This document shows positions 7,731 through 54,185 of a stretch of 64,000 nt of DNA, one piece after another. The translations under genes were made by a program, and so were the position numbers. Source of the DNA: an uncultured virus (IMG/VR IMGVR_UViG_3300027751_000010) (Duplodnaviria; Heunggongvirae; Uroviricota; Caudoviricetes); the IMG/VR virus record IMGVR_UViG_3300027751_000010; one strand, written 5' to 3'. The stretch's first letter is position 1. Every line of letters begins with the position of its first letter. The notes beneath the pieces were generated by a model, which was not told the DNA's origin, searched no databases, and saw only the letters and a program-made list of their open reading frames with translations.

Positions 7731-7952
7731 TTATTCTGCGAATTTCTCTAGTTGTCGGGAAGCTTCTTCTAGCGTAATAATGGGTTTATTAGCTTCATAC
7801 AATGCTAATAAACGTCTATGAAGGACCTCATCGTCATCTCGGCTAGCTTCACCAAGCTTAACGATTTGTGCTCCAGTGTCAATTAATTTGGATGGAGGAC
7901 ACTCGCGTAAAATTTTAGCAACGAGTATTCTGTTATTTTCTGAGAAGGACAT
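7731..7952 (-). CDS. hypothetical protein
   Basis: 73-aa ORF with RBS. Confidence 0.6.
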   Translation of the reverse strand: MSFSENNRILVAKILRECPPSKLIDTGAQIVKLGEASRDDDEVLHRRLLALYEANKPIITLEEASRQLEKFAE

Positions 7953-8322
7953 GCTTTTTCCTACTGTATGAGATAATGAAAAAGAATGTTAGGCCGAGCA
8001 TTAGCAATGTAAGCGAGCTTGGCTCAGGAACTGTTGTGGTCTGGTGACTGTCCTGCCACTGCTCCTCATGCTGCCCTGACCACTGGTAGCTGTAATCTTT
8101 ATCACCATACTGGTAGTTGTGTCGCATACCATTGTGAGAGAAATCTTCGTACTGCCAACTGTACTGAACCTTCTCATCGCTGTCATGCTGCGTATAGATC
8201 GGCGTAGCGTTGACCGCACACGAAAATGCAAGTAACAGTATCATAACAATAAGTGCGGCTACGCCGTTCCATGTTAAAATCTTGTAAACACGCTTGCCCA
8301 ATTCGTCCTCTAAACCACTCAT
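7933..8322 (-). CDS. PEP-CTERM sorting-domain protein
   Basis: N-terminal hydrophobic signal (..AVNA|TP); C-terminal VPEPSSLTLLMLGL-TM-RKK basic tail. Confidence 0.85.
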   Translation of the reverse strand: MSGLEDELGKRVYKILTWNGVAALIVMILLLAFSCAVNATPIYTQHDSDEKVQYSWQYEDFSHNGMRHNYQYGDKDYSYQWSGQHEEQWQDSHQTTTVPEPSSLTLLMLGLTFFFIISYSRKKHVLLRK

Positions 8323-11643: not shown

Positions 11644-11824
11644 CTCCTAAATAACACAAGCCCGACCTACCTAAAATAATTTCAGAACACGGGTTATTCT
11701 CCATCCGAGGTTCTACACCATACTTTAAGCGATTATAAAATTTGCGCTTGTCTCTTGCTCTTTCGTCCTCAGACTGAGGTACCATTTCATGCCAAACAAC
11801 AACTTCTGTAATTTTAACACTCAT
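11627..11824 (-). CDS. hypothetical protein
   Basis: contains [11 protein letters not shown]. Confidence 0.55.
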
Positions 11825-12405
11825 TCTTCTTCATCATCGTATATGGTATCGCGATTACATGCACGGAGTAACGCTTTGTGGTATGAGCAATGAGTAATAC
11901 TTTTACCTTTCCAATCATCCTCATCGACCTCTACAATTGTACATAAAGGACAGTCAGTTACGTCTAACGTTACGTGACCATTTTCTGCATAATCCAAAAT
12001 CGCATGTAATCTATCTCCACGCAATAGCTTTGCTAGATTCTCGTTAGGCTTGGGCGGAGCATCTAATGCGTCGTGAAATGCTTTTAAATCCTCATCACTA
12101 AGTTCCGGGTGCCGTTTCTTATATTCACCAAAACGATATGCAAGCTCATTAGCGATATGATGTAGCTGATCGCGCGCACGTATCTCGCTAGGGAAATACC
12201 GCTGTGCCGATTGGATTAACTGCTCATCTGTACAATTATCCACCATGGTCTCATCCTCAGTATTTTCATCTACGTAAAACTGCTCAGGCATCTTGTCTTG
12301 ATCCTTCAAAAACGTAAACTCGGCAAACTCCTCAGCCGACATTGAGCCAGCTTTGTACATGCCTAGCGCCGTTTCATACATTTCATCTAATAGTCTGCTC
12401 ATCAT
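11821..12405 (-). CDS. chimeric protein with HigA-like N-terminus and DUF1778 (TacA/AtaR)-like segment
   Basis: MSRLLDEMYETALGMYKAGSMSAEEFAEF and LSDEDLKAFHDALDAPPKPNENLAKLL. Confidence 0.55.
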   Translation of the reverse strand: MMSRLLDEMYETALGMYKAGSMSAEEFAEFTFLKDQDKMPEQFYVDENTEDETMVDNCTDEQLIQSAQRYFPSEIRARDQLHHIANELAYRFGEYKKRHPELSDEDLKAFHDALDAPPKPNENLAKLLRGDRLHAILDYAENGHVTLDVTDCPLCTIVEVDEDDWKGKSITHCSYHKALLRACNRDTIYDDEEE

Positions 12406-12420
12406 ATTTCCTGTGTTAGT

Positions 12421-23500: not shown

Positions 23501-23717
23501 CGCTATCAACCGGGAACATGTCCTCGGGGCTCGGGTCTACGTCGAGAGCGTGAACCTCGTACTCAGATTCACCGTCTTCGTCCTCGACGGGGTAGTGTTC
23601 TTCCAGGTAGGCGACAAATGCATCTGCTTTGTCCGAATCAGTAAATACGGCAAGCGGATTTTGCAAACCATCAAAAATCTCACCTGTCACCAAATACATA
23701 GTCTTTTTCATAATCAT
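23493..23717 (-). CDS. hypothetical acidic protein
   Basis: YLVTGE...LAVFTDSDKA. Confidence 0.65.
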   Translation of the reverse strand: MIMKKTMYLVTGEIFDGLQNPLAVFTDSDKADAFVAYLEEHYPVEDEDGESEYEVHALDVDPSPEDMFPVDSDE

Positions 23718-23734
23718 ATTTCCTGTGTTAAAAA

Positions 23735-37920: not shown

Positions 37921-38221
37921 CGAAATCTAAATCTATATAAAGTTTAAACGCACACGCATCCTTAGGAACATTAAATTCTATAGCGTAGCAGTAAATGTGT
38001 CTCAAATCCGAATACATTAAATTATATTTGGGAATGTTGCTAATCTTAGGTGCCCATTCTCTTTCTACTGTACCCTCACGTATATATCCGTCTACTTCGT
38101 ACCCTCGCCACTTCCCTGTGACATGTTTCCTGCACTGTTCTCTCACCTTCAACGTCCGCATAAATAATATTCGCGGAGGTTCCGAAAGACGTCCCAACGG
38201 AATTATGACCGTTTCCGACAT
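37907..38221 (-). CDS. hypothetical protein
   Basis: ends FNVPKDACAFKLY. Confidence 0.6.
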   Translation of the reverse strand: MSETVIIPLGRLSEPPRILFMRTLKVREQCRKHVTGKWRGYEVDGYIREGTVEREWAPKISNIPKYNLMYSDLRHIYCYAIEFNVPKDACAFKLYIDLDFDDYN

Positions 38222-38826
38222 TAGCTAAAATCGCTTCTACTTGCTAACACCTTGTCAGCAAAACCATACTTGACTGTTTCTTCCGCAGACAAGAATGTAT
38301 CTCTATCTAACATATGGATGAGTTTTTCTCTTGTCAGACCTGCTGAATTGTGCTTTAGATATAAGTCCGTCATTATATCTTTAGTACGCAGGAACTCATT
38401 CATATGCCTTTCCATATCTGATACCTTACCTTCTGTACCAGCGGATGGCTGATGAACCATTGTACGCGCTTGGGATAATACATATCGAGAGCCCGCAGCT
38501 CCAGCCTGGGCGATAAACGACCCCATGGAGCACGCCTGTCCCATAACTATTGTGGTGACAGGGCAACGAATAAATTGCATCGTATCGTAGACGGCCATAC
38601 CTGCTGTAACTGACCCGCCCGGACTATGTATATACATATTTATCGGTTTGTCAGGATTTTCTGCTTCTAGAAACAGCATCTGACCAACAATAATGTCGGC
38701 CATATCTTCGCTTACAGGTCCACGGAAAAACACAATGCGCTCCTTAAGCAACCTACTAAACAAGTCATACGACCGTTCACCATTTGCACTTTTCTCTATA
38801 ACCATTGGTACTAAGTAATTGTTCAT
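38221..38826 (-). CDS. clpP: ATP-dependent Clp protease proteolytic subunit
   Basis: GERSYDLFSRLLKERIVF, IHSPGG, ACSMG (Ser), MVHQP (His), RDTFL (Asp). Confidence 0.97.
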   Translation of the reverse strand: MNNYLVPMVIEKSANGERSYDLFSRLLKERIVFFRGPVSEDMADIIVGQMLFLEAENPDKPINMYIHSPGGSVTAGMAVYDTMQFIRCPVTTIVMGQACSMGSFIAQAGAAGSRYVLSQARTMVHQPSAGTEGKVSDMERHMNEFLRTKDIMTDLYLKHNSAGLTREKLIHMLDRDTFLSAEETVKYGFADKVLASRSDFS

Positions 38827-46335: not shown

Positions 46336-46686
46336 TTAAGTATCTTCTTCTATGGTAACAACAAGTGGGAAACCTTCTGCCTTAGCAGTGCGTAAACAAA
46401 CCGCACACTTTTCTTCTGCTATCTCAAAAGGATAAACGCCAACAGTAGCGGCGCCTTTGTTATGGACGGTAAGCATAATTTCCGCAGCTTCGTCCAAAGT
46501 TTTGTGGAATACGTTGACAAGTAAAAACACAACAAACTGCATTGTTGTCTTATCGTCATTGTGGAATATAACTCGCCAAAGCTTTGGTTCAGTTACTTCA
46601 AGCTCAACCTCAACATCAAATTCTATGTCAGGATTAGCCATCACCTCTTCCCAAGTCTCTTCCCAAGTCCAGATATCGTCGCCCAT
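46336..46686 (-). CDS. clpS: N-end-rule adaptor ClpS
   Basis: P.LWRVIFHNDDKTTMQFV..LL..VF...A..IMLTVH..G.A.VGVY..EIAE.K...FPL. Confidence 0.95.
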   Translation of the reverse strand: MGDDIWTWEETWEEVMANPDIEFDVEVELEVTEPKLWRVIFHNDDKTTMQFVVFLLVNVFHKTLDEAAEIMLTVHNKGAATVGVYPFEIAEEKCAVCLRTAKAEGFPLVVTIEEDT

Positions 46687-49602: not shown

Positions 49603-49878
49603 TTAATATAATCTCTTTCCAAACACCTTAGCATTTGATTCTTCTAGCTGTTTCCTTGCTCTCTTCTTAGCAATTGCTTTTGTGCGCTTACGTACCATAG
49701 ATGGTTTCTCGTAAAATTCTCTATCTTTCAGCTCACGTAGTAGTCCAGAGTCTTGTACTTTCTTATTAAAAATACGCAACGCCTTGTCAAACTTTCCGTC
49801 TTCTACCATTACTCTTAGCCCTTCAAGTTTCGGTGTTTCGATTCTCTTTGGAGCAAATCTTGTCTTTTTATTAATCAT
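49603..49878 (-). CDS. rpsU: ribosomal protein bS21
   Basis: FDKALRIFNKKV...G.LREL..REFYEKPS..RKR. Confidence 0.92.
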   Translation of the reverse strand: MINKKTRFAPKRIETPKLEGLRVMVEDGKFDKALRIFNKKVQDSGLLRELKDREFYEKPSMVRKRTKAIAKKRARKQLEESNAKVFGKRLY

Positions 49879-51071
49879 TCGTCATTCACCTTTCGTTTAA
49901 CGTAGTGTAGTGTTGGTATCCCCGCCTCATTCATTATAACTTTGGTCACGCCTTTCTTATATAATGAAGGAAGTTGAAATTGTGTTTTAGATAACGCTTT
50001 CTCTAATACTCCTTGTAGTCCCCTTGCGCCTGTCTTTTCTTTCATTGCCTTTGTTGCAACTGACCGCAAGTAAATAGGACTAAATTCTAATTCAATGTTA
50101 TCTAATTGAAATAAACTCTTATACTGATCTGCAATACAATCCTGCGGTTCAACTAGAATTCTCGTCAACATATTTTCATCTAATTCGTGTAACGCAATAA
50201 TAACTGGGAAGCGTCCTACGAATTCAGGAATCATTCCAAACTTAATTAAATCTTCTGATCCTGTATCTAATAATAGCATATCTGTATGTGGTTTGTCAAC
50301 TGTTGCGTTAAATCCGATTGTAGAATACTCTCTTCTGTGCTCTTTAATAATATCTTCTAGACCAACAAATGCACCAGCTGCAATAAACAAAACGTTTGTC
50401 GTGTCAAAACTTCCACCGTGTTTTGGTAGGTCAATGGTCGTGCCTTCAATCAGTTTCAACAAAGCCTGCTGTACGCCCTCACCTGACACATCTCTTGACA
50501 CTGTGCTGCCTTCAGTTTTGCGGCTCTTCTTATCTATTTCATCAAGATAAATTATGCCGTTTTGCGCTGCCTCAATGTCACCGTTTGCTTTGCTTATCAA
50601 ACGTTCAATCAAGTGCTCTACATCTTCGCCAACGTATCCCGCTTCCGTCAAAGATGTTGCGTCAGCATGTACAAACGGAATGTCAAGCAAGCTCGCAACT
50701 GTGCTAACAAGAAGAGTCTTGCCCGTTCCGCTGGGCCCAATCAATAAAGCGTTTGATTTCTTTAGTGTCGTGGTACCCACAGTAGGGTGTTTGATACGCT
50801 TAAAATGGTTGTATATGGTCACAGACAGTGCTTCTTTGGCTGTATGCTGTTCAACAATATACTTGTCGAGGTGAGCTTTAATCTCTTCTGGCGAAGGATT
50901 CTTTAGCGGCTTGAGTTCGGCTTTAGTCTTATGTATAGCGTTGTATCCTACTTCTATACATTCATCACAAATATAAGATGTCTCTTTATCTAATAATTCG
51001 GGACCGGAAACAATCTTCTTTACTTCGTGGATCGTCTTTGTGCAGAAACTACAGGCTATCTTGTCTTTCAT
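49875..51071 (-). CDS. clpX: ATP-dependent Clp protease ATPase ClpX
   Basis: CSFC...C.EC zinc finger, GPSGTGKT, LTEAGYVGEDV, RDVSGEGVQQ, IGF loop, TGARGL. Confidence 0.97.
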   Translation of the reverse strand: MKDKIACSFCTKTIHEVKKIVSGPELLDKETSYICDECIEVGYNAIHKTKAELKPLKNPSPEEIKAHLDKYIVEQHTAKEALSVTIYNHFKRIKHPTVGTTTLKKSNALLIGPSGTGKTLLVSTVASLLDIPFVHADATSLTEAGYVGEDVEHLIERLISKANGDIEAAQNGIIYLDEIDKKSRKTEGSTVSRDVSGEGVQQALLKLIEGTTIDLPKHGGSFDTTNVLFIAAGAFVGLEDIIKEHRREYSTIGFNATVDKPHTDMLLLDTGSEDLIKFGMIPEFVGRFPVIIALHELDENMLTRILVEPQDCIADQYKSLFQLDNIELEFSPIYLRSVATKAMKEKTGARGLQGVLEKALSKTQFQLPSLYKKGVTKVIMNEAGIPTLHYVKRKVNDE

Positions 51072-53700: not shown

Positions 53701-53886
53701 CTAATCTCCTTTTTTACTATCTAAATATTGTGTTAAATCTTCCCAGTCGATTTCCTCGACCTTTTTAGATTCGATTGCGCGAATCTCTGCCTCAATTCTT
53801 CGTTCGTCCGCTCGACACACGGGACAACCCTGCGCACAAAAACCCGTGTCAGTAACCCAGTGTCCTAAGTATTCGGCCGTAACCAT
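53701..53886 (-). CDS. hypothetical protein
   Basis: H...C...CPVC. Confidence 0.55.
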   Translation of the reverse strand: MVTAEYLGHWVTDTGFCAQGCPVCRADERRIEAEIRAIESKKVEEIDWEDLTQYLDSKKGD

Positions 53887-54185
53887 TATTTTGCCTTATC
53901 ACCTGCTGTGTACTGTGTGCTACCTGTGCCCCACGTCCTTGGCCTATTAACTTCTGGACCGTGTGTGCCAGTGTGCCAAACATCCTCAGGAATTACTTCT
54001 TTGCTAAAGTCTATATGACCTGCGGCAATTTCTCTCAACGCAATCACTGTGGATTTGTCATCGTTGACCGGTACTTTCGGTTCTGCACCCTTCTCTAATT
54101 GGTACGCCCGTTTTGCTGCGATACGAATTAACTCGTATACATTATCGCATTGTGCAAGTGAATCTTCGATTGTTACTCTAGCCAT
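53886..54185 (-). CDS. rpoZ: RNA polymerase omega subunit
   Basis: MARVTIED...N.YEL..IAAKRA.QL..GAEP.V...DK.TVIALREIAAG. Confidence 0.93.
   Translation of the reverse strand: MARVTIEDSLAQCDNVYELIRIAAKRAYQLEKGAEPKVPVNDDKSTVIALREIAAGHIDFSKEVIPEDVWHTGTHGPEVNRPRTWGTGSTQYTAGDKAK

Follow-up and report, generated by a model that had tools for sequence, protein, structure and literature searches.

A phage protein that joins segments of two unrelated antitoxin families without their DNA-binding domains: a candidate decoy of host toxins

Phage T4 encodes an antitoxin mimic, Dmd. Other toxin-less phage genes that, like the one for Dmd, are proposed to neutralize a host toxin–antitoxin (TA) toxin include those for the DarG-like orphan antitoxin of T-even phages (PMC11825919), Gp145 of ICP1 (bioRxiv 2023.12.14.571748), and TifA of T4 (reviewed in PMC13728456). 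Free-standing antitoxins were also reported in moraphages (PMC12619734) and cyanophage S-CREM1 (PMC9964418), which are large aquatic phages, and a counter-TA role was speculated; these are described as CcdA/HicB-like proteins, with no mention of peptide grafts in the passages covered and none of TacA or DUF1778 in PMC12619734. The toxin-binding parts of two bacterial antitoxin families are relevant here. An N-terminal peptide of V. cholerae HigA2 (residues 3–22) is reported to suffice alone against HigB2 (PMC5416850). In the TacA/AtaR/KacA family (PF08681, DUF1778), the C-terminal tail of KacA is formed by a strand (residues 52–56), a helix (57–70), a PPAP motif, and a second helix (75–86), and it wraps KacT; KacA also touches the toxin via its RHH helix and a second protomer, and neutralization was lost when R77 was changed to Ala (PMC6698736). 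AtaR is reported to neutralize via the equivalent, disordered C-terminal region (PMC7758455), and PDB fragments of 36 and 46 residues (7ak9, 6gtq) span the same piece of the TacA tail.

The window analyzed here comprises the opening 64,000 nucleotides of a linear virus record (74,386 bp) that occurs in marine metagenomes and is estimated to be 28% complete. The long ORFs of the record are nearly all on the minus strand, and its clamp loader is nearest to those of Pseudomonas jumbo phages of the PA5oct/Paride group (57.6%). The record also encodes an RNA-polymerase omega homologue (53886–54185, minus strand) and a small phage protein with a PEP-CTERM sorting motif (7933–8322, minus strand; Pfam E 1.9e-5), which adjoins an SLT transglycosylase; together, these two genes suggest a proteobacterial host. 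Like omega, further genes are host-like: homologues of ribosomal protein S21, ClpP, ClpS, and ClpX, recognized by eye only, are found at 49603–49878, 38221–38826, 46336–46686, and 49875–51071, respectively (all minus strand), and Clp components encoded by the phage could have a part in antitoxin turnover. The gene under study, P0001, sits in a run of small genes bounded by a phosphomannomutase-like HAD gene and a GMP-reductase-like gene, and has the following features:

11821..12405, minus strand: whole gene P0001, 193–194 aa, an orphan found only in near-identical phage strains
12409..12412, minus strand: likely ribosome-binding site AGGA, part of a 17-nt upstream element
12307..12402, minus strand: residues 2–33, HigA2-type N-terminal segment (partner of HigB2/RelE, PF06296) without HTH, from an HMM and a plasmid match
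12247..12306, minus strand: residues 34–53, acidic linker, predicted to be disordered from its sequence and a pLDDT <50 over residues 39–58
12115..12246, minus strand: residues 54–97, helical carrier region, from low-confidence AF2 helices at 60–70 and 74–98
12019..12114, minus strand: residues 98–129, C-terminal strand-helix-PPxP-helix tail of the TacA/AtaR/KacA (DUF1778) type without RHH, from PF08681
11824..12018, minus strand: residues 130–194, C-terminal region with CxxC and CxxH pairs and an acidic end, from its sequence

The second ATG of P0001 (12402) is a likelier start than the first, because AGGA (12412–12409) sits 6 nt before it and a database member, P0002, begins there. The ribosome-binding site and start belong to a 17-nt element (12400–12417) that recurs at 23712–23729 (minus strand) in front of an ORF for a 74-aa acidic protein, with 0.11 matches expected by chance at three or fewer mismatches; it possibly reflects shared regulation or a cassette junction. 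The codon score of P0001 was 0.18 in frame, compared to −0.26 to −1.23 in the other five frames and 0.19–0.31 in neighboring genes, and codon use was phage-like in all four segments (0.15–0.21 in frame). An assembly chimera was rejected, as the stretch is present in one contig in each of three runs, free of differences or joints; these runs may be the source of the record. None of the data sets listed as containing the stretch is RNA. Full-length relatives were limited to three near-identical copies. In a database of 5.8 billion proteins, a search at similar and shorter lengths returned P0001 itself alone, 1.84 billion representative proteins gave one spurious repeat protein, and cultured phages, the PDB, and viral contigs gave nothing meaningful for the whole protein. 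The ESM Atlas gave no usable feature match, and its top structural match, an HTH_3 cluster aligned to residues 2–42, carries little meaning because only 39 residues were covered. Syntenic relatives reached through a neighboring gene were 35–41% identical, and neither antitoxin motif was present in the three records searched. The AF2 single-sequence model (pLDDT 44.7) was too poor for a fold search. At the level of the gene, the observation is real, and it is broader than was seen in an earlier note made from the DNA alone.

That note had described a HigA-like N terminus, quoting a peptide that corresponds to residues 2–30, and two lines of evidence bear it out. The sole plasmid match, over residues 2–42 with 16 of 31 positions identical, is the N terminus of an HTH antitoxin encoded behind a PF06296 RelE/ParE toxin. 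An HMM of 59 distinct bacterial N-segments gave P0001 33.6 bits, compared to 4.4 for the next of 1,247 six-frame phage ORFs and 6.0 for the best of 2,000 shuffles, ruling out chance resemblance; the HMM support is partly circular because the patterns for the training loci included the query, a circularity from which the plasmid match is free. The nearest solved relatives of the plasmid pair are V. cholerae HigA2, via its HTH only, and HigB2. V. cholerae HigA2 matched the bacterial family only via the HTH, so toxin binding by the N-segment of this subfamily is a prediction. In a scan of bacterial genomes for HigA2-type loci, 64 of the 70 found had an HTH and 64 had a toxin upstream. P0001 has no HTH match, and no HigB2/RelE toxin gene lies directly upstream. 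Its ~32-residue segment is 52–55% identical to the closest bacterial members, and low-confidence AF2 helices (residues 4–18 and 24–35) correspond to a predicted toxin-binding helix pair. The first helix is well preserved and the second is more acidic than in any of 38 bacterial rows. Three near-invariant positions deviate, with Tyr for His (38/38 rows), Thr for Asp/Glu (38/38), and Lys for Cys (34/38).

Residues 98–129 resemble solely the C-terminal tail of TacA/DUF1778. PF08681 matched residues 101–129 at model positions 48–76 of 80 (E 5.5e-6; 26.7 bits, cut-off 21), and a tail HMM built from phage sequences without P0001 gave it 34.6 bits versus 3.3; these values rule out chance resemblance. 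The DUF1778-like peptide identified earlier (12102..12022; residues 102–128) was correctly recognized but was misplaced as the tail of the protein, since it lies mid-protein and 65 residues follow. Searches with the isolated segment gave seven plasmid matches, each weak singly (E 0.3–8), of which six were annotated as DUF1778; the three matches whose surroundings were examined all precede an adjoining GNAT gene. The region before the P0001 tail scored −1.6 bits for RHH, compared to 19.7–64 in 25 bacterial TacAs, and a GNAT toxin gene is absent directly downstream. The absence of HTH and RHH domains and of an adjacent toxin, both recorded at the outset, therefore holds, the latter extending to the whole 74-kb contig (28% complete), which lacks any toxin of the PF06296 or TacT-like kind. 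The hydrophobic and Pro positions of the KacA tail map to F110, A113, L114, P117–P120, N121, and L124 of P0001. The P0001 tail has Pro where the toxin-pairing strand would be and Asn at the position of KacA R77, which is also variable among true TacAs.

No third antitoxin piece was found in residues 34–100 or 130–194, which gave no significant match of any kind in Pfam, NCBIfam, PHROGs, PADLOC, phages, or plasmids. The idea that antitoxin segments are concatenated thus stands for two segments, and the "several" toxins once envisaged reduce to two toxin families at most. The CxxC/CxxH pairs of the C-terminal region possibly form a metal site. A GAGGA lies 7 nt before Met54 (12244–12258, minus strand), where a shorter product with only the TacA tail could start; alternatively, the site could mark an old gene-fusion point.

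Many phages carry orphan TacA tails, whereas none turned up among the sampled bacteria. A degenerate DNA pattern for the tail (per-site chance ~1e-11 under uniform bases) retrieved 15 viral loci: 10 grafts in seven unrelated carrier families, three true TacA-GNAT operons, and two chance matches with a stop codon within the motif (L120, L121). Matches in Cellulophaga phages were also discarded as chance. The grafts (L119, L122–L130) lack RHH and GNAT and reside in membrane/coiled-coil, DUF3310-containing, zinc-ribbon-like, and other carriers, in records that include 238- and 476-kb ones. All 10 match the C-terminal part of PF08681 alone (model 35–79), six of them above the cut-off, and at residues outside the search pattern the helix N-cap is kept in nine and Asp in eight. 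The motif was conserved above its flanks clearly in one of three carrier pairs (17/23 identical versus 8/30 and 6/30) and less so in the other two (19/23 versus 12/30 and 20/30 in one, and versus 16/30 and 5/30 in the other). Gp199 of the cultured phage BcepSaruman (YP_009904132.1; NC_049850.1 114584–114730; L132:1480–1626), annotated as hypothetical, is a stand-alone TacA tail of 48 aa, and its orthologue in BcepSauron, likewise cultured, is 85% identical. With one query, no TacT-like gene was found in 11 tail-carrying virus records, five of which are at least 90% complete; the BcepSaruman genome is complete. In the bacterial control, 25 matches were obtained in 22 of 201 genomes of one class, and all 25 had RHH before and GNAT after the tail (24/24 without one unpublished genome); the contrast between viruses and bacteria is indicative and gives no rate, because viral and bacterial matches were collected in different ways and the bacteria represent one class. 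Whole TacA-GNAT operons occur in some phages (L117, L118, L131, and Dolichospermum phage Dfl-JY45), and these phage-borne operons retain RHH. The complete operon of Dfl-JY45 (PP438435.1 96563–97343, L133) is annotated as "ICP1 protein" and "NAT-SF domain." The comparative data favor selection on orphan antitoxin pieces in phages, as judged from their sequences.

The HigA2-type piece has a sparser record. Among seven viral loci matching it, five were ordinary operons and two were stand-alone ORFs without HTH:

L025, 1495–1644: HTH-less HigA2 ORF of 49 aa, with no PF06296 toxin in its partial record
L028, 1492–1626: HTH-less HigA2 ORF of 44 aa, with no PF06296 toxin in its partial record

A small HTH-less family (P0007, P0015, P0016) comprises proteins of 44–51 aa that are 65–85% alike and have the motif ETALGMYK in common with P0001. 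The neighbors of P0007 are small phage genes, and its record contains no PF06296 toxin; L025 groups with P0015 and P0016, being similar in end length and sharing the same motif with P0001. These stand-alone HigA2-type mini-proteins are in, or likely from, viral contigs. Twelve of 16 short database matches, and likewise four of the 70 bacterial loci, look like truncated chromosomal antitoxins, so HTH-less HigA2 debris does exist. Nine further loci (L030, L031, L034, L035, L040–L044) matched the pattern only and were set aside as chance. Scanning metagenomes yielded nothing beyond a near-identical strain and one ordinary antitoxin, and the two pieces were found together in none of 16 other records searched. 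In a prophage-like contig (L038, oriented 1189–1380), a second, HTH-less copy of a HigA2 N terminus sits directly behind an intact higBA2-type operon; such second copies are a possible source of HTH-less HigA2 peptides.

The two segments of P0001 are homologous to the antitoxin parts described above, and both HTH and RHH are missing. Its likeness to HigA2-type antitoxins is confined to the ~32-residue N-segment, which in V. cholerae HigA2 is reported to neutralize alone (PMC5416850); unlike them, it has no HTH, no upstream toxin, and three changed conserved residues. Similarly, it shares with TacA/AtaR/KacA the strand-helix-PPxP-helix tail, but here the tail has no RHH or GNAT neighbor and is embedded mid-protein. 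P0001 thus departs from both families in DNA binding and operon structure, which places it outside them. It resembles the DarG-like antitoxin, Gp145, TifA, and Dmd as a phage gene with a proposed action on host TA toxins and, as far as the 74-kb contig (28% complete) shows, no cognate toxin; no sequence relation to any of the four was seen. Those are whole enzymes or unrelated folds, whereas the unit in P0001 is a host-derived peptide of ~30 residues on arbitrary carriers, and two such peptides from unrelated TA families occur in one chain. Gp199 is also comparable: its TacA tail likewise lacks RHH, and no TacT-like gene was found in its phage, a lytic jumbo phage, but it stands alone at 48 aa and has no HigA piece. 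RHH-less TacA tails and HTH-less HigA2 peptides in phages were undescribed in the literature searched, which was mainly open-access and included a jumbo-phage survey (PMC7824862) and the moraphage paper (PMC12619734).

The best explanation, to which we give a probability of about 0.5, is that P0001 is a two-peptide decoy that would target two host enzymes, an mRNase of the HigB2 type and a tRNA acetyltransferase of the TacT type, with binding predicted from homology. Infection would halt the supply of antitoxin, and the freed toxins would block translation. P0001, made during infection, would present a HigA2-type N-segment that binds the HigB2/RelE-type ribosome-dependent mRNase and a TacA-type tail that binds the TacT/AtaT-type tRNA acetyltransferase; as the peptides fold onto their toxins, ribosomes and charged tRNAs would stay usable. 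The remainder of the protein would serve as a carrier, and because the DNA-binding domains are absent, P0001 would not work as an operator repressor. The boundaries of both pieces appear to coincide with those of functional toxin-binding pieces, known or inferred. The decoy is further favored by the recurrence of the tail and its conservation within carriers, by the lack of TacT-like genes in the tail-carrying viruses, and by the separate HTH-less family with ETALGMYK. Several observations count against the decoy: the three altered positions of the HigA piece, the Pro and Asn substitutions in the tail, the existence of HTH-less HigA2 debris, and the occurrence of the two-piece form as a singleton. 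The main obstacle is cognate specificity, along with the additional RHH-helix contacts of KacA. GNAT-RHH pairs are reported to be cognate-specific for the most part, since four Klebsiella pairs showed a single cross-reaction and three Salmonella pairs showed none (PMC9431474), and a lone tail would lack the RHH-helix and second-protomer contacts. A HigBA system with a chaperone, possibly of another subfamily, was reported to be anti-phage (bioRxiv 2024.02.24.581848), and no report of TacAT acting against phage was found in the literature searched.

The weakness of the HigA piece invites a reading in which only the TacA tail is functional, against a GNAT toxin, and the N terminus is a captured gene start that is decaying or repurposed. 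The tail graft is widespread and conserved, the HigA piece is off at three near-invariant residues, and HTH-less HigA2 stubs are common debris. This reading is nevertheless unlikely, given that the first helix, the counterpart of the minimal V. cholerae HigB2 inhibitor, is well kept, that ETALGMYK also occurs in a separate HTH-less family, and that codon use in the HigA segment is phage-like. If neither piece had an anti-toxin role, P0001 would be a neutral mosaic of host fragments fused by illegitimate recombination, as might be suspected from its singleton architecture, the lack of a confident fold (pLDDT 44.7), and its place in a variable small-gene region with almost no strain variation for a selection test. 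Two independent captures would then both have to cut at a toxin-binding boundary, and the tail is kept in seven other carrier families and a stand-alone gene; with phage-like codon use in all four segments as well, a neutral origin is quite improbable.

Other uses of toxin binding were also considered: titration of toxin from repressor complexes to alter TA expression, action as a protease decoy, or inhibition of a housekeeping GNAT. In KacAT and AtaRT the toxin:antitoxin ratio governs repression, the phages with orphan tails (GC 0.29–0.69) evidently infect different hosts, which may mean a common target, and TacAT has no anti-phage role in the literature found. Inhibition is, however, the simplest effect of a toxin-binding peptide, and two different antitoxin pieces in one chain point to toxins as the common theme, leaving such uses very doubtful. 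Least credible is that P0001 guards against toxins encoded elsewhere in its own phage genome. The contig is just 28% complete and some phages do carry whole TacA-GNAT operons (L117, L118, L131, Dfl-JY45), but those true operons keep RHH, and no toxin was found across the 74 kb, in the five near-complete tail-carrying records, or in BcepSaruman.

If the decoy reading of P0001 is correct, it likely acts as a putative counterpart of the known phage antitoxin mimics, with grafted peptides as a form of anti-TA counter-defense that is new here. A broader proposal, held at somewhat less than even odds, is that portable ~30-residue peptides, excised from type II antitoxins of the host at the border of the toxin-binding part, are mobile phage counter-defense tags, appended to other proteins or alone, that P0001 stacks two of them, and that TacAT would be an unrecognized anti-phage defense. 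Standard annotation overlooks such grafts because less than half of a Pfam model is covered or no model exists. The idea is directly testable, since the peptides are short and gp199, from a cultured phage, is an example of only 48 aa. Opinions differ on what most type II TA systems do; if phages have repeatedly taken up exactly the toxin-binding peptide, the toxins that endanger them can be read from their genomes, and searching for such grafts would show which TA families fight phage. The captured tails would point to GNAT tRNA-acetylating TacAT systems as a threat to phages, and short toxin-binding antitoxin pieces in phages are likely, as predicted from these comparisons, to represent an undescribed way to disarm host TA systems.
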